The translations under genes and the position numbers were made by a program. Positions 677 through 58,128 of a stretch of DNA of 64,000 nt are shown in pieces. A model generated the notes under the pieces. It had not been told where the DNA came from and did not search any database. It saw only the letters and a program-made list of their open reading frames with translations. The stretch comes from Flavobacteriales bacterium (GTDB lineage Bacteria > Bacteroidota > Bacteroidia > Flavobacteriales_D > JBKBNH01): the NCBI GenBank assembly GCA_046295395.1, contig JBKBNH010000002.1, forward strand, positions 142,056 through 206,055. Reading direction: 5' to 3'. Each line of letters starts with the position of its first letter. The stretch's first letter is position 1.

Positions 677-680
677 AAAA

Positions 681-1370: not shown

Positions 1371-1477
1371 CCCTGTTTAAGTAAATTTTTTTAACGCTTT
1401 CGCCAAAATTTGTCATATTTATGGGCAACTAATTTAAAACGAACCGTTTTAATTGAGTCCCCCTAAAGTATGTAGAG

Positions 1478-4662: not shown

Positions 4663-4716
4663 TTACTTATTGGTTTATTTGTCTGTAAACTATTTGTTAG
4701 ATTAAAGTCTTAAAGT

Positions 4717-5196: not shown

Positions 5197-5337
5197 GAGG
5201 TTTGTGGTTTTAAACATTTGATTTGACACAATCATTTATTCGTCTATTAAATTATGTCTAGCTCCGAATAAGGTATGTTTTATTTACTTATGCGTACTAA
5301 ACGCCCGTAAATGCTTGTTTAAAATTTTTTCCTGTAT

Positions 5338-19571: not shown

Positions 19572-21661
19572 AAAAAACACTTTTAACACTATTGTTGCTT
19601 GGAGCCTGGACCACACAAGCCCAAGCCATAAAAATAACTCAAGCCCACGCCAAAACAAGTATTGGCGGATGGGTTTATGTGTTGGAAGACTCTGAAAACA
19701 AGCTCTCGCTAAACGATGTGTTGAATTCAAAAGATTTTGAAAAATCAAAAATAGAGGTGCCGAATTTTGGCGTAACCAATTCGGATTTTTGGATAAAATT
19801 TACCCTCACAAACAAAGGAATAGAAGAAAATATTTATCTGGAGGTGGCACAGCCGATTATGGACAAAATACACTTCTATGACCTTGAGGTAAACAACAAG
19901 CCCGTAATTGAGGGTGAAATATATCCTTTTGCTCAAAGAAAATATGGTCTGACAAATTTTGTATTCGATTTAAATCTTAAACCGGGAGCAACAAAAACTT
20001 ACTTTCTTAAAATACACAGCTCAGAGCAAATTCAGGCACCTCTTCACGTGGGAACAATGAAAGCCATTACAGACTCCAACACGCTTTCACTGGTAATTTC
20101 TTCCGCGTTTTTTGGGCTGATGCTGGTTATGGTTTTGTATAACACTTTTATTTATATAAGCACCCGAGACAATAGTTACTTATATTATGTGATTTATATT
20201 ATCATATTAATGCTTACACAGCTCACACCCAAGGGTTTTACCTATCAGTATTTTTGGCCTAGTAGTCCGTGGATGGCAAATCACAGCATGTTTTTACTTC
20301 CCGCATTAGTTGGGATTGCAGGAATTGTGTTTTTTAACAACTTTCTGGAAACCAAAAAGTTTGCTCCAAAGCTTAGAAAAATATTCTCTATATTAATTAT
20401 CACCTATGCTATTGCCATTATACTCGTCTTTTTGGGGGAGTATAAAACCGGTTACGGAATTATTGAACTATCCGCTATGGCAGTAGCCCTATCCATGCTC
20501 TTGGGCGCTATACACATCAGTAAAAAGGGAAGTCGATCGGCAAAATTCTTTTTGATTGCCTGGTCTGTTTTTCTCGTAGGAATAGTTTTGTGGGTGTTAA
20601 AAGATGTGGGGGTGCTGCCCTATAACAACTTTACTCGATACACCATGCAGTTTGGTGCGGCCATCGAAACCATTTTACTTTCCTTCGGTTTGGCCGACAG
20701 AATAAATATTTTGCGAAATGAGAAAGAATCTGCTCTTGAAAAAAACGAAAAGCTTATTAAAGAACAAAACATTTTTTTGGAACAAAAAGTAAAAGCCCGA
20801 ACAAGGCAGTTAGAAAAATCCAACTCGCAATTAAACAACGCCATAGAAACACTAAAAGAGGCGCAAGACAGTCTTGTGCAATCAGAAAAAATGGCCTCGT
20901 TAGGTCAGCTTACCGCCGGCGTGGCGCACGAAATTAACAACCCTATCAATTTTGTCTCATCTAACATCCTTCCTTTAAGAAGAGATTTAAATGATGTTGA
21001 AAACCTAATGAAAATCTACGATAGCATTACAGCCGAAAATGCCGCCGAAAAACTTGAAGAAATAAAACAGCTCAAATCAGAAATTGAATACGATTACCTG
21101 AAAGAAGAACTAAAAACTATTGTAGATGGAATTGAAGAAGGGGCAAAAAGAACCGCTTATATTGTGAAGAGTCTAAAAACCTTTTCTGCCCATGATTGGG
21201 AAGAAACTACCGCTTTTGATATTAACGATGGTATAAAAACAACCCTTACGCTACTGAATAATAGGCTTTCTAATTTTACCCTTTCCTTAGCGCTTTGCGA
21301 AACCGCCACTAGAAACTGCTATCCTGGCCAAATAAATCAGGCGCTTATGAATTTGTTTTCCAATGCCTTAGACTCTCTTGATGCGAAATGGGGCAACAAC
21401 CCTGAGGGGTCCTTATCAATAACGTCTAAAGTCGAAAACTCACAAATTATTATCGAAATAAATGATAATGGTATCGGCGTTCCGGACGAAATAAAAAATA
21501 AGATATTCGACCCGTTTTTTACAACTAAACCCGTTGGTCAAGGAACAGGACTTGGGCTTTCTATCACCTACAAAATTATCGAAACACACGAGGGAAACAT
21601 TTCTTTTGAAAGCTCTCCGGAAAAAGGCACCTCATTCACTGTATGTTTGCCTATTAAATAG
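19568..21661 (+). CDS. 7TMR-DISM sensor histidine kinase
   Basis: Signal peptide, then an extracellular DISMED2-like domain (YVLEDSENKLSLNDVL...FWIKFTLTN), seven TM helices, a coiled coil, HisKA (AGVAHEINNPINF) and HATPase (NDNGIGVP, GQGTGLGLS). ATGA overlap with the upstream gene. Confidence 0.85.
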   Translation: MKKTLLTLLLLGAWTTQAQAIKITQAHAKTSIGGWVYVLEDSENKLSLNDVLNSKDFEKSKIEVPNFGVTNSDFWIKFTLTNKGIEENIYLEVAQPIMDKIHFYDLEVNNKPVIEGEIYPFAQRKYGLTNFVFDLNLKPGATKTYFLKIHSSEQIQAPLHVGTMKAITDSNTLSLVISSAFFGLMLVMVLYNTFIYISTRDNSYLYYVIYIIILMLTQLTPKGFTYQYFWPSSPWMANHSMFLLPALVGIAGIVFFNNFLETKKFAPKLRKIFSILIITYAIAIILVFLGEYKTGYGIIELSAMAVALSMLLGAIHISKKGSRSAKFFLIAWSVFLVGIVLWVLKDVGVLPYNNFTRYTMQFGAAIETILLSFGLADRINILRNEKESALEKNEKLIKEQNIFLEQKVKARTRQLEKSNSQLNNAIETLKEAQDSLVQSEKMASLGQLTAGVAHEINNPINFVSSNILPLRRDLNDVENLMKIYDSITAENAAEKLEEIKQLKSEIEYDYLKEELKTIVDGIEEGAKRTAYIVKSLKTFSAHDWEETTAFDINDGIKTTLTLLNNRLSNFTLSLALCETATRNCYPGQINQALMNLFSNALDSLDAKWGNNPEGSLSITSKVENSQIIIEINDNGIGVPDEIKNKIFDPFFTTKPVGQGTGLGLSITYKIIETHEGNISFESSPEKGTSFTVCLPIK

Positions 21662-35077: not shown

Positions 35078-38000
35078 TTAACTAGCTGGTGCAAAGGTAA
35101 TCAAATATTTGGTGCCTTTTTTAGAATTTACCTTTATCGTGCCGTCCAGTTGCTCTATAAGTGTATAAACAAGCTGTAGCCCGAGCGATGATGAGTTTTC
35201 TACATCAAAGTTTTTGGGTAGCCCTATTCCATTGTCCTCTATTCTTATTTGTATCTGGTTGTGTTCTTGTTTCAGGCTCAAGAATATTTCACCTTTGGCG
35301 TTGTTTGGAAAAGCATATTTGAGCGCGTTGGAAATTATTTCGTTGACAATTAATCCGCAAGGAATGGCCTGATCCAAAGAAACACGAATATTATCTATGT
35401 CTTTCACTAATTTAATGTTTGATGAATTAATGGCGTAAGTGTGAAAAAGATTGGTAATTAAATTATTGAGGTAGTCGGCAAAATTAACTTCCGAAAAATT
35501 TTTGGTTTGATACAGGATTTCGTGAATGAACGACATGCTTTTAATTCGGTTTTGCCCTTCTTTTAGTATACTGATGGTGTCTTTGTCGGTAACAAATGAC
35601 GATTGCAAGTTAAGTATACTAGAAATTACTTGTAGGTTGTTTTTCACCCTGTGGTGAACTTCTTTTAAGAGTATTTCTTTTTCCTTTAGTGATTCTAGAA
35701 GCTTAGTTTCTGCCGTTTTTTGTTCGGTTATATCGCGAATAATTACCAACACTTCTTTGTTGTTTATGTTTACATATCGGGCTTCAAAAAAGCCTTGTTT
35801 ACCATTAACTTTAAGCGAATATTCGAATGGGATTATTTCGTCTGTTTTAACCGCCTTTTTAATGTTTTTCAAAAATTGTTTACCCAGCTCTGGGTTAATA
35901 AGATCTGTTACTCTTCCGCCTATAAACTTCTCAGGTTTTATAGCAAGCTGATCTTCTGATTTGTAAAACACATCTAGATAGTATCCGTCTGCGGTCATTC
36001 TGAATATTAAATCAGGTAGCGCATTTATCATTGCCTTGTTGTACTCTTCACTTTTTTTGAGTTTTATTTCGGCAACTTTTTTTTCTGTTATTTCGTGAAT
36101 TAAGCCTGCTATTTCTATAATTTTTTGTCCTTTTACCCGAATGGGGGTTAAGAACATTTCTAGCCAGATTGGTTTACCGTATAATCCGTTTATACTACCC
36201 TGAAATTCTTGTACCTCACCATTTAAAGCGGTTAGGTAAATTTCTTTCATTGCCTTAAATTTATTGTTATTCATAAACGGTTTCAGGTATTCCAAAATTT
36301 TATCTCCGTTTTTAATATCAATATTTATGTGTTTTTTCATTATGTCTATCAAGGCCGAATTGAACGATGTTAACTCCATGTTTTTATTCATGGTAAACAT
36401 CATCATGTTTGAGGTATTCTCAAAGAATGACTGAATTTTGGAAGATTGTTGTTTTACGAGTTCTTCGCTTTCTATTATTTTGGTTATATCTCTTAATACA
36501 TCTCGCGAACCGACATATTTACCTTCTTCATAAACTGCCGTAGAAGACAGTTCTACAAATCGGTTATTTCCTTTTGCTGTAGTAATTTGAATGGTAAAGC
36601 GCTGTATAAATCCTTCTTTTCTGAGAATTTTACTGTATTTAAGGCAATATTCAAGCGAATTGGGATGAACAAAGTCGTATAAATTTCCGGTGTGTACATT
36701 TTCGTTGAGTTCAAAAAGTTTTCTCGCTGCCTGATTTATGTCAATAAAATTATTTTTTTCATCCAACAGCAAAATAGCATCATACATATTTTCGAAAAGG
36801 CTACGAAACTTCTTTTCGCTTTCGATAAGTCCTTCTTCTGCTTTTTTCAATTCGGAAATATCTCTGGAAATTCCCATATATCCCACTATATTTCCTTTAT
36901 TGTCCTTAATGGTAGTAGCGGACAAGTATGAGGTAAAAAGTGTCTTATCTTTTCTAATATTAGTAATCTCTCCGAGAAATAAACCATGCTTGGTAATTGA
37001 ACTTATTACTTTTTCAAAATCTTCGTAATAATAATATAGGTCTGTGGCAGATAGGTTTATCATTTCTTCCTTGGTATAGCCAAATGCTAAAAGCGAAGAA
37101 GGACTTATTTGAGTTATCTTATTATTGATATCGGTTGCCATAATCATGTCTAGAGAGGAATTAATCATGTTTTTTGTAAACTCTTGATTTTTAATTAATT
37201 CCTGCTGAGTTTTCTTATGATTCTCTATTTCTTTGATAAGCTTTTTATTTGCCTCCTCGGCTAATTCCGCCCGTATAGTTTCGTCTTTTAGTTTTTTAGT
37301 TTGGGTTATATCTATGAGTGTGCCTTCTATAAATGTGTCTTTTCCCTTTTCGTTTTTAACTATATAAACATTGTTTAAGGTAAAAATTTCTTTACCTGCT
37401 TTTGTTTTGTATCGTGCTTCGTAGTTAAATAAAGATCGCTCTTTAAGTAATTTTTTTACGTAGTTATCTCTTTCTTTTTTAGAAAAATAAAAAGATTCTG
37501 ATTTTACACTTTTCATTTCTTCGAAAGACTTGTATCCAAAAATATTTGCAAAAGCAGTATTGCAAATTACCATTTCTCCATTAAGTCTAGTTCTGAAAAC
37601 CCCCGTAATGTTGTTTTCAAAAAGACTTCGGTATCTTTCTTCTGATTCTTTGAGGTAATTTTTATAATGTGCTTCATCGGTAACATTACGCGCAATGCCA
37701 AAATTTCCAATGTGTTTTTTATTTACATCGAATTGAGGAATAATTGTTTCTTCGATATAGATGTAATTAGAACTATTTCCCGGTAAAAAACGATAAGTGT
37801 GTTTTATTGGTTTTGTTGTATGCTTTATGCTTTTAGAAATTTCTAAAATAGAGGATAAATCATTGGGATGATAGTATCTTATAAGTTTATTGGATTTTGA
37901 AAGGGTGATAAATTCGTCAACTGAAAAACCAAATAATTGTTCTATATAAGGAGATACATAACGTATATATTTGTTACCCTTATCATCTATGGTAATATTG

Positions 38001-38425
38001 TAAACTACGTTATCTATGTTGTTAAGTATAGTGGTTAGTTTTTCATTTGTTTCATTTATTTGTTTGAAAGCTTTTAAAGACTCTGAATTATCTATAATTC
38101 TGATTATAAAATAATCTTTTTTGTTTTCGTTAACAACGTTGATATGAAAATCAACCAAGCTTTTATTACCGTTAAAATCCGAAAGCAGTTTTACGCCTTT
38201 CCAATTTTTATAATTAATTAGTTGTTCAGTAATATCTTTAATATCGTTTTCATCTAAATGGATAAGGTTTTTTTCCCACCAGTTTTGGTTAAGTAAATTG
38301 TTTTCAGCACAAGCTAATAGCTTACACACATAAGGATTAATAGCTAAAATTTTATAAGAATTCGCGTCAATAAGAAAAATAGCATCTGAAGAGGAACCGA
38401 AATATAAATTAAATTTAGACAGCAT
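35078..38425 (-). CDS. Cytoplasmic multi-PAS sensor histidine kinase (HisKA_2 / HWE-like core)
   Basis: 1115 aa with no TM segment. There are at least five PAS/PAC-like modules (repeated ...RDITE/RDISELK endings), an H-box KEVHHRVKNNLQVISSILNLQ, and a HATPase C-terminus (EDNGIGLP...LGLQLVYTL). Its ATG overlaps the upstream stop (TAATG). Confidence 0.85.
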   Translation of the reverse strand: MLSKFNLYFGSSSDAIFLIDANSYKILAINPYVCKLLACAENNLLNQNWWEKNLIHLDENDIKDITEQLINYKNWKGVKLLSDFNGNKSLVDFHINVVNENKKDYFIIRIIDNSESLKAFKQINETNEKLTTILNNIDNVVYNITIDDKGNKYIRYVSPYIEQLFGFSVDEFITLSKSNKLIRYYHPNDLSSILEISKSIKHTTKPIKHTYRFLPGNSSNYIYIEETIIPQFDVNKKHIGNFGIARNVTDEAHYKNYLKESEERYRSLFENNITGVFRTRLNGEMVICNTAFANIFGYKSFEEMKSVKSESFYFSKKERDNYVKKLLKERSLFNYEARYKTKAGKEIFTLNNVYIVKNEKGKDTFIEGTLIDITQTKKLKDETIRAELAEEANKKLIKEIENHKKTQQELIKNQEFTKNMINSSLDMIMATDINNKITQISPSSLLAFGYTKEEMINLSATDLYYYYEDFEKVISSITKHGLFLGEITNIRKDKTLFTSYLSATTIKDNKGNIVGYMGISRDISELKKAEEGLIESEKKFRSLFENMYDAILLLDEKNNFIDINQAARKLFELNENVHTGNLYDFVHPNSLEYCLKYSKILRKEGFIQRFTIQITTAKGNNRFVELSSTAVYEEGKYVGSRDVLRDITKIIESEELVKQQSSKIQSFFENTSNMMMFTMNKNMELTSFNSALIDIMKKHINIDIKNGDKILEYLKPFMNNNKFKAMKEIYLTALNGEVQEFQGSINGLYGKPIWLEMFLTPIRVKGQKIIEIAGLIHEITEKKVAEIKLKKSEEYNKAMINALPDLIFRMTADGYYLDVFYKSEDQLAIKPEKFIGGRVTDLINPELGKQFLKNIKKAVKTDEIIPFEYSLKVNGKQGFFEARYVNINNKEVLVIIRDITEQKTAETKLLESLKEKEILLKEVHHRVKNNLQVISSILNLQSSFVTDKDTISILKEGQNRIKSMSFIHEILYQTKNFSEVNFADYLNNLITNLFHTYAINSSNIKLVKDIDNIRVSLDQAIPCGLIVNEIISNALKYAFPNNAKGEIFLSLKQEHNQIQIRIEDNGIGLPKNFDVENSSSLGLQLVYTLIEQLDGTIKVNSKKGTKYLITFAPAS

Positions 38426-39960
38426 TAAGGTATATCGAGTTTCGGGGTAATTTTTAAACCGTCTAATTTATGTTCTATTCCATTTTTATACAACACAGTC
38501 ATTATGGGAGTTCCATATTCATCATATTTTTTCCACTCTCCATCTTTATTTCCGTTTCTGTAAGAGCCCTCCCACATCACCTGTCCTGAATTATAGTAAT
38601 ACTTGTGCTTATTAATCGGTATTCCGTTTATATATTCTCCTTTAAAACTTAGTTTTCCATTATCAAAATAGTGTTCCCACACACCATGAAGCAAACCATC
38701 TCTGTATCCACCTATTTCTTTGTGATCACCAAGCTCATAAAACCAATTTCCCTCTCTTACTCCACCAACATATTCTCCTTTAGTTATTACTGTTCCAAGA
38801 GAATCATATTCTATTACTTCTCCTTCTTCTCTTCCTTTTATAAAAGTTTCTTCTCGCCAAAGTTGTTTGTTAATATACCATTTTTTCCAAAGGCCATGGG
38901 GTAGATTATTAACATATTTTCCTTTCTGTTGAATCATCCCGTTTTTGTAATAAAAAATCCATTCTCCAACTTTATTTCCACTAGAAAAATCACCTTCAGA
39001 TTGTAATTCACCGGTAGAAAAGTAATATTTCCATCTACCTTCTTCTCTATCTAGCGAATCTCTTCTTCCTTGGGCAATCATAACATCATCTTTATAAAGA
39101 TAAGTCACTAGCACTGTTTCTGTTGTATCAAAATGCCTAAATATTCCGTGTTTTTTATCTTGTTTTAAACCTCCCAATATTTTAAGTTTACCGTTAGGAT
39201 GGTATTCTCTATACAGTTCTAAAAATATTGTTTCTTCAGATTCTTCATCAATAACACCTTCAGTAAATTTATCCATACTCTTCAGGCCGCCATCACTATT
39301 ATATTGTTTAATCAATCCATCAATTTCTCCATTTTTAAAAGATCCCTCCCATTTTACCTTTCCATCAGGATAAAACTCTTTCCAAACTCCTGTTTTGCTT
39401 CCTTTCTCATCGTATCGATTAATTTTTTCTTCACTCCTTAAAAATCCGGCTAAATACGTCCTTAGAGTTATTATATTTCCGGTGGTGTCGTATTCTATTT
39501 CTTTGCCGTCTTTGTTGCCATCTTTGTAAATATAAGCAGTTTTAATCCTTCCATTTTGATGAAACTCAAAAGCTTCACCCTGTTTTACGTTGTTTATGTA
39601 ATTTATTTTTTCTACCAAACAACCCAAGGTATCATATGTCCTAGAAACACCGTTTTTTTTATCTTCCTCGTAGTTTATTTCATACAAAAGTTGTTCATGT
39701 TCAGTATAAAAATACCAGATACCGGTTAGTTTGTGATTTATTCTGTTTCCTGCACTTTTTTTGTTTCCGTTGTCGAAATATGTAATCCAAAAACCTTCAG
39801 GTTTTCCATTTTTCATAATTCCTTCACTACTTTTTACTCCATTAGGATAATAAAATACAGTATAACCATCAGAATTTATTTTCTGTGAAAAAGAAAATAA
39901 AGCAAAAAAAACAATTCCAAAACAAAAAACGGTTTTCAACATATATCTATAAAAAATCAT
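38425..39960 (-). CDS. Exported MORN-repeat-variant (YwqK-like) repeat protein
   Basis: 511 aa with a signal peptide, then about 18 repeats of the Y-x-N-G-x-(K/L)-x-x-E-G-x-x-x-N-G-x-x-x-G-x-W type (YPNGVKSSEGIMKNGKPEGFW, YYNSGQVMWEGSYRNGNKDGEW). Confidence 0.8.
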   Translation of the reverse strand: MIFYRYMLKTVFCFGIVFFALFSFSQKINSDGYTVFYYPNGVKSSEGIMKNGKPEGFWITYFDNGNKKSAGNRINHKLTGIWYFYTEHEQLLYEINYEEDKKNGVSRTYDTLGCLVEKINYINNVKQGEAFEFHQNGRIKTAYIYKDGNKDGKEIEYDTTGNIITLRTYLAGFLRSEEKINRYDEKGSKTGVWKEFYPDGKVKWEGSFKNGEIDGLIKQYNSDGGLKSMDKFTEGVIDEESEETIFLELYREYHPNGKLKILGGLKQDKKHGIFRHFDTTETVLVTYLYKDDVMIAQGRRDSLDREEGRWKYYFSTGELQSEGDFSSGNKVGEWIFYYKNGMIQQKGKYVNNLPHGLWKKWYINKQLWREETFIKGREEGEVIEYDSLGTVITKGEYVGGVREGNWFYELGDHKEIGGYRDGLLHGVWEHYFDNGKLSFKGEYINGIPINKHKYYYNSGQVMWEGSYRNGNKDGEWKKYDEYGTPIMTVLYKNGIEHKLDGLKITPKLDIP

Positions 39961-48958: not shown

Positions 48959-49483
48959 GTGACCTGTTTAAACAAAATATTGGTTTTAGTCCTATCCTTT
49001 GTGGTATTTAACACACGAGGGCAGCAGGATTTTAAAACGAATAATAATCTTAAAGCAATTTATGTATACAATTTTACCACACTGGTTGATTGGCCTAAAG
49101 AATTTAAGCAAAACGATTTTGTGATAGGGGTGCTTGGCGATCAGGGTTTAGTGGATGTTTTGACACAAAAATATTCATCAAAAAATGTAGGCGCACAGCC
49201 TATAAAAATCAAAGCATACAAAAACGAGACAGAAGTTGATCAGTGTCATATCTTGTTTATTGCCAACAGCCAGTCGGCAACCGTAACGAGGCTTTCAAAA
49301 AAACTGACCAAATACAGCACACTTATAGTAGCGGAGTCTGCAGGGGCACTAGAATCAGGGGCTTGTATTAATTTTACAGCAAAAGATAATAAATTAGCGT
49401 ACGAATTGAGTAAATCAAACACAGAACGAATCAAATTAATATTGGGCAAAACCATATTAGAATTGGCGGTAAAAGTTAGTTAA
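48959..49483 (+). CDS. YfiR-family (DUF4154) periplasmic protein
   Basis: Signal peptide, then KAIYVYNFTTLVDWP...FVIGVLGD...CHILFIANS...TLIVAES...GACINF...ELSKSNTERIKLILGKTILELA, which matches the DUF4154/YfiR pattern. Confidence 0.75.
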   Translation: MTCLNKILVLVLSFVVFNTRGQQDFKTNNNLKAIYVYNFTTLVDWPKEFKQNDFVIGVLGDQGLVDVLTQKYSSKNVGAQPIKIKAYKNETEVDQCHILFIANSQSATVTRLSKKLTKYSTLIVAESAGALESGACINFTAKDNKLAYELSKSNTERIKLILGKTILELAVKVS

Positions 49484-50382
49484 TGAGCAAAAAGCTTTAC
49501 ATAGCGATCATATTTTGTTTACTGATGGTTTCAGGAGCTTATGCACAGTCTAAAAACTGGGAAAAAGCACTTAAGGCATATCAGGAAGAAAACTTTGATG
49601 ACGCCATAAAGTTCAGTGATAATTCTATTATGGATGATGCTGAAAGTAAAGACGCTTACACTTGGCATGTTCGTGGATTTATTTACAGAGCCGCACACAA
49701 AAAACTTGATGACAGCAGCCCAGCCTCTAAACTAAGAGAAACATCGATAGAATCCTTTCTCAAAAGTATTGAGCTTGATTCGAATAAAGAATTTGAAATT
49801 AAGAACAAAAGCGCAGTAATTAATTTAGCAAAAACCTATTTTAATGACGCCGTAAGAGCATTAAGCGCTGAAACTTTTGAAGACGCTATTGAATATTATG
49901 CCAAATACAAGGACGTTACCCGCCGGGTAGAGCCTGATTTCAGCTTTAAACAAACCGATATAGACTTTAACAACACCCTTGGCGCAGTATACCAAAACAT
50001 ATATGAAAATGATAAGGGCGCAAACCAAAATTTTATGCAAAAAGCCATTGATGTATATAAGACCACTATAGAAATAGACTCGCTTAACTATAATGCGAAC
50101 TACAATATAGGGGTTTTATATTACAATCAGGGTGTAGATTTAATTTTGTCTATTGACCCGGAAGCACCACTTCCTATTGTAATAGAAACTCAAGAAATGT
50201 GTGCAGAGTTATTTATACGGTCTTTACCATATATGAAAAGAGCGTATAATTTAAAACCAACAAATAGAGAAACCATCATTGGTCTTGCGGGCATTTATTT
50301 TAACTTGAATGATAACGAAAAGTCTAAATTTTTTAGCGACCTTTTGAAGGAGGTAGAAGATAACGACTCACCAAACAGATAG
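49483..50382 (+). CDS. Exported TPR-like helical repeat protein
   Basis: Signal peptide MSKKLYIAIIFCLLMVSGAYAQ and TPR-like helix pairs (WEKALKAYQEENFDDAIKF, YNANYNIGVLYYNQG, IIGLAGIYFNLNDNEKS). The start overlaps the upstream stop (TAATG). Confidence 0.45.
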   Translation: MSKKLYIAIIFCLLMVSGAYAQSKNWEKALKAYQEENFDDAIKFSDNSIMDDAESKDAYTWHVRGFIYRAAHKKLDDSSPASKLRETSIESFLKSIELDSNKEFEIKNKSAVINLAKTYFNDAVRALSAETFEDAIEYYAKYKDVTRRVEPDFSFKQTDIDFNNTLGAVYQNIYENDKGANQNFMQKAIDVYKTTIEIDSLNYNANYNIGVLYYNQGVDLILSIDPEAPLPIVIETQEMCAELFIRSLPYMKRAYNLKPTNRETIIGLAGIYFNLNDNEKSKFFSDLLKEVEDNDSPNR

Positions 50383-50394
50383 GAAAAAAACAAA

Positions 50395-52248
50395 ATGAGG
50401 TTTACTATAGGCAGACGTATAGGTCTTGGTTTCGGAATAGTGATATTTCTCATTTTGATTATTTTCTATTTTACCTTCAATACCCTTCGTCAGGGCTCAG
50501 ATACGTTAAACGAAAGTATCGAAAAAAACAAACGATTTAATGATGTAACTCAACCAACTATAGAGTTGCTCATTCGTTTGAAAGAAACCATTTTTGAGAC
50601 TAAAACACTTATTAATAAGTGGGCAACAGAACAAACGCGCGAAGACGATCAAAGCAAAATCAGACTTAAGAAAATCACCACAGAAATAGTTCCCTCAACA
50701 GTTAGACGATTAGAATCGCTTGCCTCGGAATGGTCTTCAGAAGAAGACAAGGGTCGGCTACAGCAGAACATCTTCAAAAACATAGAAGAGCTTTTTTCCA
50801 TGCACGAAACTTACGTTACTTCTATTTTGGTAGACTTCGATAGTTATAACGACCCATCAGCCTTGTTTTTGGCCAGGCCGGCAGTGCAGCCCGATGGAGA
50901 AATTAGCAAAAAAACCCAGCAAATTACAAACGAGCTTGATGATTTCATCAACAGAAAAAACGCCGAAGCGGCAAGTCAAAAAGATGAAATGAATAAATCT
51001 TTTGAGGTAACCGAAACAGGATTTGCTTGGTTGAAACTTTTAGTTGTTTTTTTTGGTTTAGCCTTATTTATAGGCACGGTTGTGATAGCCACCCTAACCT
51101 CTAGGTCTATTGTGGGGCCGGTTAACGAACTTAAGTTAATACTTTTTGATTTAGGGAAAGGAATTTTCCCAAAGACAAAAATGAAAGCAAGAAATGACGA
51201 AATCGGAGAAATGACTCTTGCGCTGGATAACTTAGTTGAAGGCCTGAAAAGAACAACCGACTTTTCTAGAGAGGTTGGTTCCGGCAACTTCGAATACGAC
51301 TATCAACCACTTTCAGAAGAAGATGTTTTGGGACATGCATTGCTAAAAATGCGTGATGAACTAGCTGAAAACGAAAGAGTTCTTGAGCAAAAAGTGGTAG
51401 AAAGAACCGAAGAGGTCGTTCGGCAGAAAGAAGAAATCGAAAACCAACGACAAAAACTGGAAGAGCTATACAAAGACGTAACAGATAGCATTAGGTATGC
51501 AAAACGCCTTCAGGACTCTATTCTTCCACCAGATTCTTTTGTAAAACAATTATTGCCGGAATCTTTCGTTTTATTCAGACCAAAAGACATCGTAAGCGGC
51601 GATTTTTACTGGATGGAAGAAACAAATAACAAAATACTTTTTTCGGCGGTAGATTGCACCGGACATGGTGTTCCTGGAGCATTTATGAGTATAGTTGGAG
51701 CAAATGCTTTAAATCAGGCGGTTGCTGCTTCAAAACTAGATACTCCCGGATTAATTTTAGACGAATTACACCGGCTGTCTTCAGAAGCGCTGAATAAAAC
51801 TTCAGATGAAAAATCTGTGAGGGACGGTATGGACTTAGCCATGTGCGCTCTTTCTAAAGATTACAAAACATTAGAATATGCCGGAGCAAATAATCCGCTT
51901 TACATATTAAGAAAAGATGAAATTATACAGACTAAAGCGGATAAATTTCCAATAGGAGGCTTCGAAGTAGGCCAGCATAACTATGCTACCCACACATTTG
52001 ACCTGCAGGATGGCGACATGATATACATATTTTCTGATGGTTACGCAGATCAGTTTGGAGGCTCAAAAGGTAAAAAATTCATGTATCGCCAGTTCAGGGA
52101 GGTGCTTATGGAAATAAGACATTTACCCATGAACAAACAAAGGCAAGAGCTTGAGCGAATCATGGAAGAATGGAAAGGAGTCTACGAACAGGTGGATGAT
52201 GTGTTGGTAATAGGAGTGAAAATTAACTTAAATCAAACTAAACCATGA
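50395..52248 (+). CDS. Membrane sensor with HAMP domain and PP2C/SpoIIE-family Ser/Thr phosphatase output
   Basis: TM1, a ~190-aa periplasmic helical domain, TM2, HAMP (IVGPVNELKL...DEIGEMTLALDNLVEGL), a coiled coil, then SpoIIE motifs (AKRLQDSILP, SGDFYW, DCTGHGVPGAFMS, DGMDLAM, FSDGYADQFGG, DDVLVIGVKI). Confidence 0.85.
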   Translation: MRFTIGRRIGLGFGIVIFLILIIFYFTFNTLRQGSDTLNESIEKNKRFNDVTQPTIELLIRLKETIFETKTLINKWATEQTREDDQSKIRLKKITTEIVPSTVRRLESLASEWSSEEDKGRLQQNIFKNIEELFSMHETYVTSILVDFDSYNDPSALFLARPAVQPDGEISKKTQQITNELDDFINRKNAEAASQKDEMNKSFEVTETGFAWLKLLVVFFGLALFIGTVVIATLTSRSIVGPVNELKLILFDLGKGIFPKTKMKARNDEIGEMTLALDNLVEGLKRTTDFSREVGSGNFEYDYQPLSEEDVLGHALLKMRDELAENERVLEQKVVERTEEVVRQKEEIENQRQKLEELYKDVTDSIRYAKRLQDSILPPDSFVKQLLPESFVLFRPKDIVSGDFYWMEETNNKILFSAVDCTGHGVPGAFMSIVGANALNQAVAASKLDTPGLILDELHRLSSEALNKTSDEKSVRDGMDLAMCALSKDYKTLEYAGANNPLYILRKDEIIQTKADKFPIGGFEVGQHNYATHTFDLQDGDMIYIFSDGYADQFGGSKGKKFMYRQFREVLMEIRHLPMNKQRQELERIMEEWKGVYEQVDDVLVIGVKINLNQTKP

Positions 52249-52832
52249 ATGAATGGTGGATTGAACTTTCCGGCACAGAAAAAGTATTTTGGATAATAGC
52301 TATTCCGGCTACTATCATTTTTCTTTTTGTTTTGGTTATCAACCTAATTGCCGGCATCGATAGCGGAGACCTCGACTCCTCTGACGGGTCTTTTGATGCA
52401 GACATGGCCGATGGCATAGGGTTTCAGTTCATTACATTTAAAACACTCCTAGCCTTTTTTACCATTTTTGCTTGGACAGGTATCGCGTGCCTTGATGCTC
52501 AATTTTCAACCACAGTATCTGTTTTAATAGCAACCGGAGCAGGAACGGTAATGATGGCGCTTACCGCTTGGTTTTATTATTTTATGGCTAAAATGTCTGA
52601 GAGCGGAACACTTAAAATAAACAAGGCCATTGGCGCAATAGGCGAGGTATATTTAACCATACCAGCCAATGCCCAAACGGTAGGAAAAGTACAAATAAAA
52701 CTCCAAGGCTCACTCCATGAATTAGACGCCATAACAGACGATGAAAAAGATATAACCAGAGGCAAATTAGTAAGAGTAACCGATGTTGTAAACAACACCA
52801 TATTAAAAGTAACCCTTAACACAAACACATAA
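52245..52832 (+). CDS. NfeD-family membrane protein (OB-fold C-terminus)
   Basis: Three or four TM helices and a C-terminal beta-rich domain (GEVYLTIPANAQTVGKVQIKLQGSLHELDAITDDEKDITRGKLVRVTDV). ATGA overlap with the phosphatase gene; a flotillin gene follows directly. Confidence 0.7.
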   Translation: MNEWWIELSGTEKVFWIIAIPATIIFLFVLVINLIAGIDSGDLDSSDGSFDADMADGIGFQFITFKTLLAFFTIFAWTGIACLDAQFSTTVSVLIATGAGTVMMALTAWFYYFMAKMSESGTLKINKAIGAIGEVYLTIPANAQTVGKVQIKLQGSLHELDAITDDEKDITRGKLVRVTDVVNNTILKVTLNTNT

Positions 52833-52837
52833 AAATC

Positions 52838-54220
52838 ATGTTTGAAGACTTAAATTACATTACCATTCTCATCGCCATTGTGGTGGGATTTTTCTTCATT
52901 TTTGTATTAACCTTCATAAGAAGATATAGAAGGTGTCCTTCGGACAAAATTTTGGTTGTTTATGGCAAAGTAGGCGGGGGCTCAGCTAAGTGTATTCACG
53001 GAGGAGCGGCATTTATATGGCCGCTTATACAAGATTATTCCTATTTGGATTTAACACCGATTTCTATCGAGGTGAACCTTGCTAATGCACTCTCCAAACA
53101 AAACATTCGGGTTGATGTACCCTCTCGTTTTACCGTAGGTATTTCCACAGAGCCTGTAATTATGAACAATGCTGCAGAGCGTTTGTTGGGATTAAAACAA
53201 CAGCAAATCTACGACATAGCCAGAGATATCATTTTTGGTCAGTTGAGGTTAGTTGTTGCCACCATGGATATAGAAGAAATTAATAGCAATAGGGATAAAT
53301 TTTTGGCAAACGTGTCTGCCAACGTGGAGGCAGAGCTTAAAAAAATAGGCCTCCGCCTAATTAACGTAAACGTAACCGACATTAAAGATGAATCCGGCTA
53401 TATCGAAGCATTAGGCAAGGAGGCTGCAGCTAAAGCCATCAACGATGCCAGACAGAGCGTAGCAGAGAAAAACAGAGACGGCTCCGTGGGAGAGGCCAAT
53501 GCCGTACAAGAGCAGCGGGTAAAGGTAGCCCAAGCTAACGCTACAGCAGTAGAAGGAGAGAACCTCTCGAAAATATTAATTGCTAATTCTGATGCTTTAA
53601 GACGAGAAAAGGAGGCCGAAGCTGAAAAAATAGCCATTGCCGCTGAAAAAGTACAAACAGCCAAAGCCCTCGAAGAGTCTTATGCAGCAGAAAGAGAAGC
53701 AGAAACAGCCAGGGCACAAAGAGACAAAGCCTCTCAGGTCGCAGACGTTATAGTTCCTTCTCAAATCGAAAAAGAAAGAATAGAAATACAAGCCGAAGCG
53801 CAGGCAGAGCAAATAAGAAGAATTGCAAAAGGAGAGGCCGACGCAATCTTATTTAGAAAACAAGCCGAAGCACAGGGATTACTCGAAATTCTTACTAAAC
53901 AAGCCGAAGGTCTGGACCGAATTGTGAAAGCCGCAGGAAATAATTCCAGAGATGCCGTCCTATTGCTTATAGCAGATAAGTTGCCAGAAATTATTAAAAC
54001 ACAAGCCGAAGCAATTAAAAACATAAAAATTGATAAAGTAACCGTGTGGGAAGGAGGAACAAATGCAGATGGCAAGACATCTACAGCAAACTTTATCTCA
54101 GGTTTATACAAATCTGTTCCGCCGCTTGACGACATGTTTAAAATGGCAGGAATGGAATTGCCATCGTATTTAAAAGGAAAAACAGAAGACCCAGCAAACA
54201 ATAATGACCAAGCCGAATAA
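52838..54220 (+). CDS. Flotillin-family SPFH (band 7) protein
   Basis: N-terminal anchor, an SPFH domain (RCPSDKILVVYGK...IWPLIQDYSYLDLTP...), and a long Ala/Glu-rich flotillin coiled coil (EAEAEKIAIAAEKVQTAKALEESYAAEREAE). Confidence 0.85.
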   Translation: MFEDLNYITILIAIVVGFFFIFVLTFIRRYRRCPSDKILVVYGKVGGGSAKCIHGGAAFIWPLIQDYSYLDLTPISIEVNLANALSKQNIRVDVPSRFTVGISTEPVIMNNAAERLLGLKQQQIYDIARDIIFGQLRLVVATMDIEEINSNRDKFLANVSANVEAELKKIGLRLINVNVTDIKDESGYIEALGKEAAAKAINDARQSVAEKNRDGSVGEANAVQEQRVKVAQANATAVEGENLSKILIANSDALRREKEAEAEKIAIAAEKVQTAKALEESYAAEREAETARAQRDKASQVADVIVPSQIEKERIEIQAEAQAEQIRRIAKGEADAILFRKQAEAQGLLEILTKQAEGLDRIVKAAGNNSRDAVLLLIADKLPEIIKTQAEAIKNIKIDKVTVWEGGTNADGKTSTANFISGLYKSVPPLDDMFKMAGMELPSYLKGKTEDPANNNDQAE

Positions 54221-57200
54221 AATAAATAGTTCAATAAAAAGAGCCTTGATTAATCTAATCAGGGCTTTTGTTTTTATTGGCCTAGCATGCGGACAAGCAC
54301 AGCACAGTATTAAGTTCGACAACATCTCCCTGAATGAAGGGCTCTCTCAGAGCACTATTTCTGCAATAATTCAGGACTCGCAAGGCTACATGTGGTTTGG
54401 CACACAAGACGGATTAAATCGTTACGACGGATACAGATTCAAAATATATAAACACGACCCAGATATTTCAACCTCCATCTCCGGAAATTTTATAAAATGT
54501 ATAATGGAAGACGGAGACTATCTTTGGATAGGAACCGAAACAGGGGGGGTAAATCGTTATGAAAAAAGCAGAGATGTTTTCCGAACATTTGATCATATAG
54601 ACCAATTAAGACACTCTGCTGTTACCGCTCTTGCCAAAGATAAAAGCGGTAAGATATGGATAGGGACAGATGATAATGGATTGATAAGTTTTTCTCCAAA
54701 AGAAGGAAGAGTAGAACATTTTAACGAAAACAACGGGCTAATGTCCAACAACATTAAGGGGCTTAAATTTTTACCCGAAGGATTTTTGTTAATCGGCCAG
54801 CTAGATGGCCAATTACAATATTTGAATGTAAAGGAAAACAAACTTAAAACTGTAAAGGACAACAAAATATACGGCTCAAATTTTTATTCGTTCGAAACTT
54901 CTAAAAATGGGCAAACCCTAGTCGGAACAGATAGAGGAGTAATTACTTTGCAAATAGAAAATAACGAACCGACCATAAAAAAAAGAATCTATCCGGTAGA
55001 ACAAGCCTCTTCTCTTTTACTTCAGAACGATTCAACCCTTTGGGCAGCCACAGAAGGGTTTGGCTTATTTAAAATTGATCTGAACAAATCCAAAACAAAT
55101 AATTACAGATATGACCCGTTGAATAGAAAGAGTATTGCCGAAAACCTCATTTTCAGCGTATTTCAAGACAGGAGCGGCTGTATTTGGATAGGCACAAACA
55201 ACGGGCTAAGTAAGTTCGACCCTATTAAGCAATTTTTCAACCACATAGCACCCGAGCCCGACAATCCTAAAGGACTAAACGACAAAACAATCTGGGCAAT
55301 AGCTAAAGACAAACGAAACCGGCTTTGGGTGGCCACGAGCAAGGGGCTTAGCCGAGTAGATGAAAACTCTTTGGTTGCTGTAAATTATCCATTTGTTGGC
55401 AACAACCCCAACTTGCCCAACAACAACAATGTATACAGTGTTCTACCAGAAGATGATTTTCTGTGGCTTGGAACGGTAGATGGATTTTATAAACTCAATT
55501 TTTCAAACGACAAGCTAGAAAAGGTAAACCTTGGAGAGTTTGAGCAAACCGCAGACAAAAGAATTTACCACATAACAAAAGACAAAAATGGCAACATATG
55601 GCTTGGCGCTAAAGAAGGTCTATGTTTTTATAACGTAAAAGACAGAACAACGGCACATTTTAAGAGCAGCCCATCAAAAAACAAATCCCTTCCGGGAAGA
55701 ACGGTAAGAGCCGTTCATGTGGACAGCAAGGGAAACTTGTGGGTCGGAACCGAAGGCGGAGGTCTGGGGTTTGTTTCAAGCGATCAGATTACAACACAGC
55801 CAAAAGAACTTTCTTTTGATGTGTATAGCGCAAGTTCGGCAGACTATAAAGCCTTAAACAACAATATTATAACAACAATTTTTGAAGACCAAGACGGCAC
55901 GCTTTGGCTTGGCACATACGGCGGCGGATTAAATGCGTTAAACCCAAAAACAGGAAAATTCAGGCGTTACACGGAAAAAGAAGGCCTGTCAAACAATGTT
56001 GTTTATGCCATTCTTTCCGAGAACGAAAATGCACTTTGGATGAGCACCAACTTTGGTTTGTCAAGGCTAGAAAAAGCAACCGGAGCCTTTAAAGTTTTTC
56101 TAGAAAAAGACGGCCTTCAGAGTAACGAGTTTAATATAGGCGCCGCATATAGAGCGAAAGATGGAAAATTATATTTTGGTGGAATAAACGGGTTAAATAG
56201 CTTTTATTCGACACAAATAACAGAAAACAGAATTCCACCGGAAGTATTAATTACCGGAATTTTATTGTTTAATCAACCTATAAAAATAGGCCCGTCATCG
56301 CCACTTCAAACGGACGTTTCATTTGCGCAAGAAATTGCTCTAAAACACAGACAAAATAATCTTACAATAGAATACGCAGCACTACACTTTTCTAATTCGG
56401 CAAACAATAAATACAAGTTTATTTTAGAGGGATACGAGGAACAAATGAATTATGTGAGTGATGTAAAAAGAGCACATTACAGTAATCTTCCTCCCGGAGA
56501 ATACACGTTCAAAGTGTTCGGGTCTAATAGCGACGGTATTTGGAGCCAATCTCCGGCAAAACTGCGGATAGTAATACTTCCTCCCTATTATGCAACTTGG
56601 TGGTTTAGAGGAATTTTAGGCATTGTCTTGCTTTTAGTTGTTTATACCTTTTACCAGCTAAGGATAAGAACCATCCGTCTTCAAAAACAAAAACTATCCG
56701 AACTAGTTGAAAAACGAACAGCAACCATCAGAAAACAAAAAGAAATGATGGAAGAACAAAAACTACAGCTTGAACTGGAAAAAGAAAAAAGCGACAAACT
56801 GCTAATAAATATTCTTCCGGCAGAAACAGCAGAGGAACTAAAAAATCACGGAAAAGCAACAACAAGAACATATCGCTTAGTCACAGTAATGTTTACAGAC
56901 ATTATAGGGTTTACCCAAATTGCCGAAAAAATGAATCCGGTAGATCTCGTAAAAAGACTAGATGAGTATTTCAGGGAGTTTGACAAAATAATAGAGCGAA
57001 ATAAAATTGAAAAAATAAAAACAATTGGTGATTCATATATGGCCGCAGGCGGAGTGCCAATAAGAAATAAAGAAAACCCCGTGTATACAGTTTTGGCGGC
57101 ACTTCAGATTCAAAAGTTAATGCGGGATAAAAAAGAAGAAGCGATAACCAAAGGAGAAGCAGACCCTTGGGATCTCAGGGTGGGCATTCATACAGGAGAT

Positions 57201-58100
57201 GTAATTGCAGGAGTAATCGGAGAAAAGCGAATTGCATACGACATTTGGGGCAACACAGTAAACGTGGCAAGTCGGATGGAAAGCAGCGGAATGCTCGGAA
57301 AGGTAAACATATCGGGGGCAACCTACGAACACATAAAACCCTATTTTGATGTAGTATACAGGGGTAAGATTATGGCCAAAAATAAAGGCCATATCGACAT
57401 GTACTTTGTTGAGCGAATTAAGCCGGGGCTTTCGGAAGACGAGGGGGGCACTGTTCCAAACGCTAAGTTTTGGGAATACCTGAATTTACATGTGTTCAGC
57501 AGTATAAACTACCACAAGGCAGAAAGGCATATTATGAAAATATTGGTAGAAAAATTATCACCAAATCTTCATTATCATGGCATTCATCATACGGCAGATG
57601 TTGTTCAGGCTGTTGAAAGAATTGCCATAATGGAAGGGGTGGTAGACGAACATATATTTGTTTTGAAATCAGCAGCAACATACCATGACGCCGGTTTTGT
57701 AGAACAATACGAACACAACGAACCTGTAGGGGCAAAAATGGCCGAAGAAATCTTGCCTCTTTATGGATACACAAAAGAACAAATCCAACAGGTAAAAGAG
57801 TTAATTTATTCAACCATTATACCCCATAACCCCAAAAATAAACTGGAAGAAATTATCTGCGATGCAGATTTAGACTATCTGGGAAGAGATGATTTTCACG
57901 ATATAGCCGATTCTTTAAGGCGTGAATTGAGAGATCATGGAAAATTAAACAGTGATAGACTTTGGGATGAGATTCAGGTGAAATTTTTAACCGCACATAA
58001 ATACTTTACAGACTCTGCAAAAAGACTCAGAGATCCAAAAAAACAAAAGCATCTGGAAGAAATAAAACAACGCTTAATAGAAAACAAGTACAACGATTAG
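54204..58100 (+). CDS. Periplasmic two-component-regulator propeller + Y_Y_Y sensor fused to a class III adenylate cyclase and a C-terminal HD domain
   Basis: 1298 aa with a signal peptide and many Reg_prop repeats (GYMWFGTQDGLNRYDG etc.). Y_Y_Y domain (NKYKFILEGYEE...YSNLPPGEYTFKVFGSNSDGIWS). One TM helix at about 56590-56660, then a coiled coil. Cyclase core at about 56870-57420 (VTVMFTDIIGFT, KTIGDSYMAAGG, YDIWGNTVNVASRMES). HD domain at about 57560-57900 (HGIHHTADV, TYHDAGF, CDADLDYLGRDDF). Confidence 0.85.
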   Translation: MTKPNKINSSIKRALINLIRAFVFIGLACGQAQHSIKFDNISLNEGLSQSTISAIIQDSQGYMWFGTQDGLNRYDGYRFKIYKHDPDISTSISGNFIKCIMEDGDYLWIGTETGGVNRYEKSRDVFRTFDHIDQLRHSAVTALAKDKSGKIWIGTDDNGLISFSPKEGRVEHFNENNGLMSNNIKGLKFLPEGFLLIGQLDGQLQYLNVKENKLKTVKDNKIYGSNFYSFETSKNGQTLVGTDRGVITLQIENNEPTIKKRIYPVEQASSLLLQNDSTLWAATEGFGLFKIDLNKSKTNNYRYDPLNRKSIAENLIFSVFQDRSGCIWIGTNNGLSKFDPIKQFFNHIAPEPDNPKGLNDKTIWAIAKDKRNRLWVATSKGLSRVDENSLVAVNYPFVGNNPNLPNNNNVYSVLPEDDFLWLGTVDGFYKLNFSNDKLEKVNLGEFEQTADKRIYHITKDKNGNIWLGAKEGLCFYNVKDRTTAHFKSSPSKNKSLPGRTVRAVHVDSKGNLWVGTEGGGLGFVSSDQITTQPKELSFDVYSASSADYKALNNNIITTIFEDQDGTLWLGTYGGGLNALNPKTGKFRRYTEKEGLSNNVVYAILSENENALWMSTNFGLSRLEKATGAFKVFLEKDGLQSNEFNIGAAYRAKDGKLYFGGINGLNSFYSTQITENRIPPEVLITGILLFNQPIKIGPSSPLQTDVSFAQEIALKHRQNNLTIEYAALHFSNSANNKYKFILEGYEEQMNYVSDVKRAHYSNLPPGEYTFKVFGSNSDGIWSQSPAKLRIVILPPYYATWWFRGILGIVLLLVVYTFYQLRIRTIRLQKQKLSELVEKRTATIRKQKEMMEEQKLQLELEKEKSDKLLINILPAETAEELKNHGKATTRTYRLVTVMFTDIIGFTQIAEKMNPVDLVKRLDEYFREFDKIIERNKIEKIKTIGDSYMAAGGVPIRNKENPVYTVLAALQIQKLMRDKKEEAITKGEADPWDLRVGIHTGDVIAGVIGEKRIAYDIWGNTVNVASRMESSGMLGKVNISGATYEHIKPYFDVVYRGKIMAKNKGHIDMYFVERIKPGLSEDEGGTVPNAKFWEYLNLHVFSSINYHKAERHIMKILVEKLSPNLHYHGIHHTADVVQAVERIAIMEGVVDEHIFVLKSAATYHDAGFVEQYEHNEPVGAKMAEEILPLYGYTKEQIQQVKELIYSTIIPHNPKNKLEEIICDADLDYLGRDDFHDIADSLRRELRDHGKLNSDRLWDEIQVKFLTAHKYFTDSAKRLRDPKKQKHLEEIKQRLIENKYND

Positions 58101-58108
58101 TAAACAAA

Positions 58109-58128
58109 AAAGCCTTTATAGGCTTTTT
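58109..58128 (+). terminator. Rho-independent terminator after the cyclase gene
   Basis: Stem AAAGCCT (58109-58115) pairs with AGGCTTT (58120-58126) around loop TTAT, running into a T-run. Confidence 0.7.

Follow-up and report, generated by a model that had tools for sequence, protein, structure and literature searches.

A predicted transmembrane receptor adenylate cyclase with a tethered HD phosphohydrolase domain in Flavobacteriales

A stretch of 64,000 nucleotides from a Flavobacteriales bacterium (positions 142,056 to 206,055 of contig JBKBNH010000002.1; hereafter the window) carries a gene at 54204-58100 whose 1298-residue product combines, in this order, a signal anchor, beta-propellers with a Y_Y_Y domain, one transmembrane helix, a coiled coil, a class IIIa nucleotide cyclase domain, a linker and an HD domain. 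The protein is proposed to be a homodimeric transmembrane receptor adenylate cyclase with a tethered HD domain that would hydrolyse cyclic AMP (cAMP), a proposal to which a probability of roughly 0.58 is assigned. An orthologue with 93% identity to the protein is of identical length. Every motif quoted in an earlier reading of the letters of the window (hereafter the original prediction) was found in the translation of this open reading frame (ORF). The cyclase motifs are FTDIIGFT (D899), KTIGDSYM (K939, D943), YDIWG (D1013) and TVNVASRMES (N1020, R1024), and those of the C-terminal tail are HYHGIHHTAD (H1125, H1129, D1132), YHDAGF (H1161, D1162) and CDADLDYLGRDDF (D1220, D1222, D1224). The coordinates of all the features are collected in Table 1.

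Sensor, membrane topology and cyclase domain

The Reg_prop, Y_Y_Y and Guanylate_cyc domains were all recovered with Pfam, the HD domain being identified by other routes discussed below. The Reg_prop match in the sensor (5.1e-53) covers eight stretches, and 11 W-x-G-T-x-x-G blade motifs were counted. Among the chains of the Protein Data Bank (PDB), the sensor matched 4a2l, the periplasmic domain of BT4663, at 2.5e-115, and further sensors of hybrid two-component systems (HTCS) at 1e-79 (3v9f) and 7e-49. The Pfam and 4a2l matches bear out the HTCS-style propeller and Y_Y_Y sensor recognised in the original prediction. Only residues 14-32 and 795-823 are strongly hydrophobic in the hydropathy profile of the whole protein; therefore, a sensor of about 770 residues is placed outside the membrane, with one transmembrane helix before the coiled coil, as had been claimed, and a cytoplasmic part of about 475 residues behind that helix.

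No match to HisKA, HATPase, REC or an AraC-type helix-turn-helix was obtained in the 1298-residue protein with Pfam at E-values up to 0.1, in agreement with the earlier claim that a cyclase and an HD domain stand in the place of a kinase. Among the large ORFs scanned around the gene, no SusC/SusD-like genes of a polysaccharide utilisation locus (PUL) were found, the neighbours being YfiR-like, TPR, SpoIIE, SPFH, SDR and urocanase proteins. Since the phosphorelay and the AraC output are absent and no PUL lies nearby, the protein is not an HTCS, and only the sensor is held in common. Bacteroides HTCS sensors of the BT4663 type (4a2l, 3v9f, 3ott) possess a homologous Reg_prop double propeller and Y_Y_Y domain followed by a transmembrane helix; however, their output is of the HisKA-HATPase-REC-AraC type, whereas the receptor described here carries a cyclase and an HD domain and has no PUL alongside. 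A glycan ligand deduced from the gene context was considered and dropped as no PUL is nearby; by analogy with the HTCS sensors, the periplasmic ligand is probably an oligosaccharide.

The cyclase domain matched the PDB chains of AC8, AC9 and AC5 at 1e-51 to 1e-55 (AC8 2.5e-55) and those of the Rv1625c/Cya type at 1e-35 to 1e-41 (6e-41). As its nearest solved relatives are thus the mammalian AC8/AC9/AC5 and the mycobacterial Rv1625c/Cya, the domain is placed in class IIIa. The segment preceding it, LLINILPAETAEEL, aligns with the segment that precedes C2 of AC8/AC9, and a weak Pfam match to the C-terminal part of HNOBA falls in the coiled-coil segment, in which N869, P872, E878, L879 and G883 are each at least 90% conserved. 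The segment LLINILPAETAEEL would fit the cyclase-transducer element known from class IIIa/b enzymes.

The C1-type metal ligands D899 and D943 align with AC8/AC9 (mFTDiiGFT against FADvkGFT and iGDSYm against lGDCYy), the C2-type Lys K939 and D1013 align with C2 of AC8 (IKTIGDSYMA against IKTIGSTYMA and YDIWGNTVN against YDIWGKTVN), and the region with the Asp, Asn and Arg residues reads YDIWGNTVNVASRMES against YDIWGKTVNLASRMDS in the PDB alignment. By the established pattern of class III cyclases, D899/D943 are the metal-binding Asp residues, K939/D1013 the ATP-specifying pair and N1020/R1024 the transition-state pair. In the related cyclase-HD sequences from genomes, D899, K939, D943, D1013 and N1020 are conserved in 77 of 77 and R1024 in 68 of 77. 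The metal Asp pair, the ATP-type Lys/Asp pair and the ASRMES motif named in the original prediction were confirmed by the alignment, all six residues being present and none substituted.

As a single chain holds the metal Asp, Lys/Asp and Asn/Arg pairs, a homodimer would form two complete active sites making cAMP, as in Rv1625c, whose homodimer likewise has all the six canonical residues in one chain. Class IIIa cyclases (Rv1625c/Cya and the mammalian enzymes) have a catalytic domain and a helical transducer segment that can be aligned with those of the receptor, but are anchored by six transmembrane helices in contrast to the single helix, the large periplasmic sensor and the extra C-terminal HD domain found here.

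The HD domain, its associations and its probable substrate

The C-terminal 224 residues alone gave no match to any HD model in Pfam or NCBIfam, nor to any PDB chain with phmmer. Therefore, structure prediction and family profiles were used. The AlphaFold2 model of the tail, obtained from 22 sequences, has 12 helices (predicted local distance difference test score, pLDDT, 95.2; predicted template modelling score, pTM, 0.90) and was matched by Foldseek with probability 1.00 to the small HD hydrolases 2pq7, 5dqv, 2qgs and 2pjq and to class I phosphodiesterases (PDEs) in the PDB. The E-values were 9.6e-4 for 2pq7 and 2.5e-3 for Bacillus subtilis YpgQ, and the query TM-scores 0.66-0.68 for PDE5A, which gave the best query coverage, and 0.53-0.58 for PDE4B/D. 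Pfam HD was matched by 15 of the 22 close relatives and, at E<1e-4, by 38 of 40 more distant ones; short-form orthologues with 52-57% tail identity scored 22.1-26.4 bits against the Pfam HD (PF01966) gathering cutoff of 22, whereas the window tail gave no match. A more diverse profile built from 45 sequences matched 2pq7 (2.1e-7), Escherichia coli YedJ (3gw7; 1.5e-6), BH2835 (3dto; 3.6e-3) and YpgQ (5dqv; 8.6e-3), with PDE9A reached at 0.025 through the first motifs only. Other weak profile matches, to a Cas10 HD (2.4e-3), 2hek (9e-3) and an exopolyphosphatase (0.06), lie below 2pq7 and YedJ.

The predicted metal ligands H1129, H1161-D1162 and D1222, together with H1125, D1220 and D1224, are invariant in 77 of 77 relatives, and D1132 is present in 75 and replaced by Glu in two. 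The first His motif of the tail, YHxxxHTxDV, has Asp where HDISHTFRV of 2pq7 and HDVCHFRRV of YedJ have Arg, and the Asp at this place is the class I PDE state. On the evidence of the profiles and the predicted fold, the tail is judged to be a genuine HD-fold domain and a divergent sister of the YpgQ/YedJ clade. The complete HD domain claimed in the original prediction is, thus, upheld by indirect routes, namely the AlphaFold2 model, Foldseek, the Pfam matches of the homologues and the family profile, and in the subfamily search that had been recommended the tail came out as YpgQ/YedJ-like, and not by sequence as a class I PDE or a (p)ppGpp hydrolase. The YpgQ/YedJ/AtCN-PDE1 clade is nearest to the tail by profile and fold and shares with it the DAD-LD-x-LG third motif. 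Unlike that clade, the tail has the Asp for Arg and the additional conserved residues W1254, Q1258, F1261 and H1265, is missed by single-sequence searches, and is almost always tied to cyclases or to domains that bind cyclic nucleoside monophosphates (cNMPs).

Membership of the class I PDEs by sequence was rejected, as hhalign comparisons of three tail profiles (Neff, the effective sequence number, 2.0, 4.0 and 3.3) with the PDB-verified PDE4D sequence gave probabilities of 2-10% and extended over no more than one or two His motifs at the start. The weak alignment at 5% places Y50/H51/H55/D58/H87/D88 of the tail on Y159/H160/H164/D167/H200/D201 of PDE4D2. The tail belongs to the same fold class as PDE4, PDE5 and PDE9, and the Y-H-x3-H-x2-D-V and HD motifs can be aligned; however, class I PDEs span about 330 residues against about 190 in the tail, bear no significant sequence relationship to it, and contain HDxxHxGxxN, which the tail lacks. 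The (p)ppGpp hydrolase and deoxynucleoside triphosphate (dNTP) triphosphohydrolase readings were also rejected, there being no RelA/SpoT match at E-values up to 10 and the remaining weak matches, 2hek among them, ranking behind the YpgQ/YedJ group.

The associations of the HD domain were examined in relatives. In the 80 genome loci that scored best with the tail profile, the tail is fused in frame to the C-terminal side of a class III cyclase in every case (80/80), about 60 of the proteins having a propeller sensor and about 13 only an anchor of two transmembrane helices, a coiled coil, the cyclase and the HD domain. As the tail always follows the cyclase and the anchors vary, the conserved unit is a cyclase-linker-HD cassette with interchangeable sensors; in two distant relatives it is fused to a 7TMR-DISM sensor, a module that also occurs in a histidine kinase of the window. 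The HD domain is the most conserved region (median identity 65%), followed by the cyclase (58%) and the sensor (25-40%). The linker has 13 of 40 positions conserved at 90% or more and forms two helices with pLDDT 87-97, and it is missing from the standalone HD proteins, which begin at about profile position 37. It may, thus, serve to couple the two catalytic domains.

Among 50 other multidomain relatives, Guanylate_cyc was present in 42 (as HD-cyclase, HD-PAS-cyclase, HD-PAS-PAS-cyclase, TPR-cyclase-HD and REC-containing forms) and cNMP_binding in five (as HD-cNMP_binding-SpoIIE and HD-cNMP_binding-HisKA-HATPase-REC-Hpt). Four standalone HD copies (about 198 residues) had 8 kb or more of surrounding sequence; two of them follow a cyclase gene after 9 and 63 nt and lie beside a cNMP_binding protein. 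The operon at locus L089 (ENA ERZ1757541 contig_5338, 371-6097), which encodes a 798-residue protein, a Y_Y_Y-cyclase of 390 residues, an HD protein of 198 residues (after a 9-nt gap) and a cNMP_binding-SpoIIE protein of 446 residues, looks like a split form of the window system in which the phosphatase itself carries the cyclic-nucleotide receptor. In one HD-cNMP_binding-SpoIIE protein (P0321, 817 residues), the SpoIIE domain is seemingly broken by a DUF559/REase-like insertion at residues 472-575.

Since this HD subtype occurs almost always with cyclases or cNMP-binding domains, retains invariant ligands and shows the highest conservation in the protein, a cAMP (or cNMP) phosphodiesterase is considered the best reading of the tail, and the odds modestly favour it. 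Two members of the plant YpgQ-like clade, AtCN-PDE1 and BdPDE1, have been reported to hydrolyse cGMP/cAMP (PMC6692503, PMC8431786), and plant CAPE joins a class III cyclase and a PDE in one chain for which both the adenylate cyclase and the cAMP-PDE activities have been shown (PMC5159850, PMC8115329, PMC11032487).

Several points weigh against this reading. The similarity to class I PDEs is confined to the first two His motifs (2-10% with hhalign), and no match to PDEase_I (PF00233) was found for the tail or the 22 homologues among the families listed at E-values up to 1. The tail reads H1161-D-A-G-F-V-E-Q-Y, without the H-D-x-x-H-x-G-x-x-N that constitutes the PROSITE signature of class I PDEs (PS00126). 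Q1258 is present in 72 of 77 relatives, F1261 (tail F187) is invariant in two tail alignments, and Q1258-x-x-F1261, a candidate counterpart of the glutamine switch of PDEs (a purine-reading Gln with a Phe clamp), is spaced like Q369-x-x-F372 in PDE4D; no PDE alignment reaches this C-terminal region. The SpoIIE phosphatase of the window has no detectable cNMP-binding domain, only a weak HAMP upstream of its PP2C domain, and, as no PUL adjoins the gene, a glycan ligand is a matter of analogy. Finally, YpgQ, the only biochemically characterised bacterial relative, is an Mn-dependent (d)NTP pyrophosphohydrolase (PMC8177086, PMC6692503).

The last of these points leads to the main rival explanation, by which the HD domain would be a YpgQ-like pyrophosphohydrolase or phosphatase of (d)NTPs or of another non-cyclic nucleotide and might trim the ATP/GTP pool at the cyclase or clear non-cognate NTPs. 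The nearest relatives of the tail by profile and fold (2pq7, YedJ, BH2835 and YpgQ) favour such an activity, YpgQ and YedJ having been reported as Mn-dependent (d)NTP pyrophosphohydrolases (PMC6692503, PMC8177086). However, it leaves unexplained the fusions of the HD domain to cNMP-binding domains with non-cyclase outputs and the recurrent operon with cNMP receptors, and the tail has HTxDV, with Asp in the class I PDE state, against HTFRV/HFRRV of 2pq7/YedJ; this rival is judged unlikely. The conserved rigid linker to the cyclase would fit an HD domain that is catalytically silent or mainly regulatory, serving to tune the cyclase as an allosteric or dimerisation module that binds a nucleotide or metal, and degenerate EAL or GGDEF domains commonly act as sensors in second-messenger proteins. 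Such a role is considered improbable, as all the predicted metal ligands and many nearby residues are invariant in 77 of 77 and the same HD domain exists as a standalone protein of 198 residues, which argues for autonomous activity.

Slightly less probable still is the degradation of another messenger, such as (p)ppGpp, a cyclic dinucleotide or a 2',3'-cNMP, by which two systems would be cross-wired. HD domains of other families act on such messengers (PMC8177086), and weak profile matches were obtained to HD-GYP proteins (4mcw and 5z7c, E-values 0.07-0.18) and to Ppx/GppA domain III; however, the GYP motif and the extended H...HD...H...H...D motif, a mark of dinuclear HD enzymes (PMC8177086), are absent from the tail sequence. 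Neither was a RelA/SpoT-type match obtained at E-values up to 10, nor a GGDEF, DAC or RelA_SpoT partner in the 50 architectures. A cyclase product other than cAMP (cGMP, cCMP or cUMP) is very improbable, for the Pfam Guanylate_cyc model is blind to substrate choice but the Lys/Asp pair at the positions of K938/D1018 of AC2 is present and invariant in 77 of 77, whereas guanylate cyclases carry Glu/Cys-type residues at these base-specifying positions.

In the proposed mechanism, ligand binding in the periplasm would reshape the dimer in the manner of BT4663 and thereby switch the cyclase. The signal would pass from the propeller dimer through Y_Y_Y and the transmembrane helix, as in the scissor-blade model of BT4663 signalling reportedly put forward by Lowe et al. 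in 2012, and on through the coiled coil to the cyclase dimer. The cAMP would be produced at the membrane and the adjacent HD domain would hydrolyse 3',5'-cAMP to 5'-AMP, forming a source-plus-sink cassette in which the signal would be kept local and transient or synthesis and hydrolysis would be reciprocally switched as in Rel/SpoT. The hypothesis of pulse signalling from one receptor, raised in the original prediction, gains support from the fusion and neighbourhood ties of the HD domain to cyclases and cNMP-binding domains. The output would probably run into a PP2C (SpoIIE-type) phosphatase pathway, which is proposed because in relatives SpoIIE phosphatases either keep synteny with the cyclase or are joined to the HD domain by way of a cNMP-binding domain.

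Distribution and parallels with known systems

Relatives of the tail number more than 2,000 in a 90%-clustered database and 5,383 representatives at 50% identity, and the tail is present in at least 593 species-representative genomes. The best 80 genomes are almost all of Flavobacteriales (Crocinitomicaceae, Fluviicola, Lishizhenia, Brumimicrobium, Taishania and Vicingaceae), and more than 120 clusters of proteins of about 1270-1350 residues show the full architecture at 39-93% identity. The IMG product name for such proteins is ligand-binding sensor domain-containing protein / class 3 adenylate cyclase / predicted metal-dependent HD superfamily phosphohydrolase. The architecture is, thus, not rare, as the at least 593 species genomes and the three-part IMG names attest. 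It proved common and automatically annotated, and not described in the literature searched: no description of, or experiment on, a bacterial cyclase-HD fusion or a propeller-cyclase was found there, subscription journals lying largely outside the coverage. In a number of records of metagenome-assembled genomes (L007, L009, L012, L016, L025, L027, L049, L051 and L066), Crocinitomicaceae-like copies appear under implausible species names, including Ca. Planktophila lacus, Kuenenia stuttgartiensis, Akkermansia, Chryseobacterium gleum and Chitinophaga pinensis, a hint that the bins are contaminated or wrongly labelled.

Two known kinds meet in the proposed receptor: receptor class III cyclases, in this case with a sensor borrowed from the HTCS, and messenger enzymes that pair a maker with a breaker. 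The best functional analogue is CAPE of Marchantia and other streptophytes, in which a class III adenylate cyclase and an HD-superfamily hydrolase also share one polypeptide. CAPE is eukaryotic, lacks propeller and Y_Y_Y domains and has as its PDE a canonical class I enzyme on the N-terminal side of the cyclase, whereas the predicted HD domain here is YpgQ/YedJ-like and C-terminal; the receptor would, therefore, be a bacterial analogue of CAPE by architecture and not a homologue in the PDE domain. Rel/SpoT (HD hydrolase with synthetase), GGDEF-EAL and GGDEF-HD-GYP enzymes similarly combine the maker and the breaker of one messenger, the breaker being a probable one in the present receptor, but they handle other messengers with other domain families.

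On a further-reaching reading, to which slightly less than even odds are given, the HD subfamily would constitute an unrecognised and widespread bacterial class of 3',5'-cNMP phosphodiesterases, intermediate between the YpgQ-like enzymes and the class I PDEs, hard-wired to cyclases as a counterpart of CAPE and read by cNMP-binding PP2C phosphatases. A periplasmic ligand would then toggle one polypeptide between making and destroying cAMP, and a cAMP pathway would be defined in Flavobacteriales, in which, to our knowledge, cAMP signalling is essentially unstudied. The bacterial cAMP PDEs known to us are of class II and class III (CpdA/Rv0805-type), those of the HD type being regarded as eukaryotic. 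Hydrolysis of cAMP by the HD domain would, thus, add to the bacterial PDEs a family that is new and very widespread, extend the maker-plus-breaker design of cyclic di-GMP and (p)ppGpp to bacterial cAMP, open a way into the cAMP signalling of environmental Flavobacteriales and demonstrate that the glycan-sensor module of the HTCS is able to control a second messenger in place of a phosphorelay. Should the HD domain act on NTPs, the receptor would merely be one more sensor-cyclase architecture.

Operon context and other features of the window

Table 1. Coordinates of the receptor gene, its predicted domains and the associated operon features in the window
Feature	Position	Strand	Basis
Whole sensor / adenylate cyclase / HD gene (predicted)	54204..58100	+	Single 1298-residue ORF, ATG start, uninterrupted
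N-terminal hydrophobic signal anchor or signal peptide, residues 14-31	54243..54296	+	Kyte-Doolittle window
Periplasmic sensor, residues 32-797, HTCS type, Reg_prop beta-propellers and Y_Y_Y	54297..56594	+	Pfam, blade motifs, PDB matches
Y_Y_Y immunoglobulin-like domain, residues 729-792	56388..56579	+	Pfam 2.7e-15
Single transmembrane helix, residues about 798-822	56595..56669	+	Hydropathy
Coiled coil and cyclase-transducer-like segment, residues 823-888, LLINILPAETAEEL	56670..56867	+	AC8/AC9 alignment; weak HNOBA
Class IIIa nucleotide cyclase catalytic domain, residues 889-1070	56868..57413	+	Pfam Guanylate_cyc PF00211 1.9e-51
Conserved cyclase-to-HD linker, residues 1071-1110, fused forms only	57414..57533	+	Conservation, AlphaFold2
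Predicted HD-fold phosphohydrolase domain, residues 1111-1298	57534..58097	+	AlphaFold2, Foldseek, family profile, invariant ligands
YfiR/HmsC-like (DUF4154) periplasmic protein, first operon gene	48959..49483	+	Pfam 1.3e-30; same position in L082
TPR protein	49483..50382	+	Syntenic in 11 loci
Membrane sensor PP2C phosphatase (transmembrane helix, loop of about 190 residues, transmembrane helix, weak HAMP, SpoIIE)	50395..52248	+	Syntenic in 12 loci and L082
195-residue NfeD-like(?) protein and SPFH/Band_7 protein	52245..54220	+	In L003 and L082; absent from most syntenic loci
Terminator-like hairpin, followed by a T-run	58107..58128	+	Begins 7 nt past the stop codon

The receptor gene is the last in a packed plus-strand operon (48959-58100) whose junctions are overlaps of 1, 4 and 17 nt, the last between the stop of the SPFH gene and the start of the cyclase-HD gene, and gaps of 5 and 12 nt. 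The same six-gene order was found around a 46%-identical orthologue in a genome of 5.9 Mb (L082). Among the 80 loci, TPR and SpoIIE genes lie directly upstream of the cyclase-HD gene in 11 and SpoIIE alone in one more, NfeD/SPFH being usually absent. No cNMP-binding domain was detected in the window by tblastn with three cNMP domains; as the neighbouring SpoIIE phosphatase is also without a detectable one, its link to cAMP in the window is drawn by synteny only. Taken together, the synteny and the HD-cNMP-SpoIIE fusions suggest that the cAMP signal is partnered with a PP2C phosphatase pathway.

Pseudomonas YfiR is a periplasmic inhibitor of a diguanylate cyclase, and by analogy the YfiR-like protein might be a regulator of one or other of the two membrane sensors in the operon. 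In fungi, the adenylate cyclase polypeptide itself includes a PP2C domain (PMC12710969), a possible parallel to the recurrent cyclase-SpoIIE synteny.

No second copy of the cyclase or of the HD domain was found in the window, and a scan for sigma-70 promoters was uninformative, as it returned 36 sites against 30 expected by chance. Other genes in the window include one at 9747-12938 on the plus strand for a 1063-residue protein that has numerous WD40 repeats and ends in a caspase-like Peptidase_C14 domain (1.8e-14). On the minus strand at 35078-39960 are encoded a 1115-residue multi-PAS histidine kinase of the HisKA_2/HWE type and then a 511-residue MORN_2-repeat protein. These two genes lie in the low-GC stretch at 36-42 kb, where the GC content is 30-32%, compared with about 40% in the rest, and the GC skew is strongly negative at 38-40 kb. 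A 7TMR-DISM histidine kinase (DISMED2 and 7TM) is encoded on the plus strand at 19568-21661.

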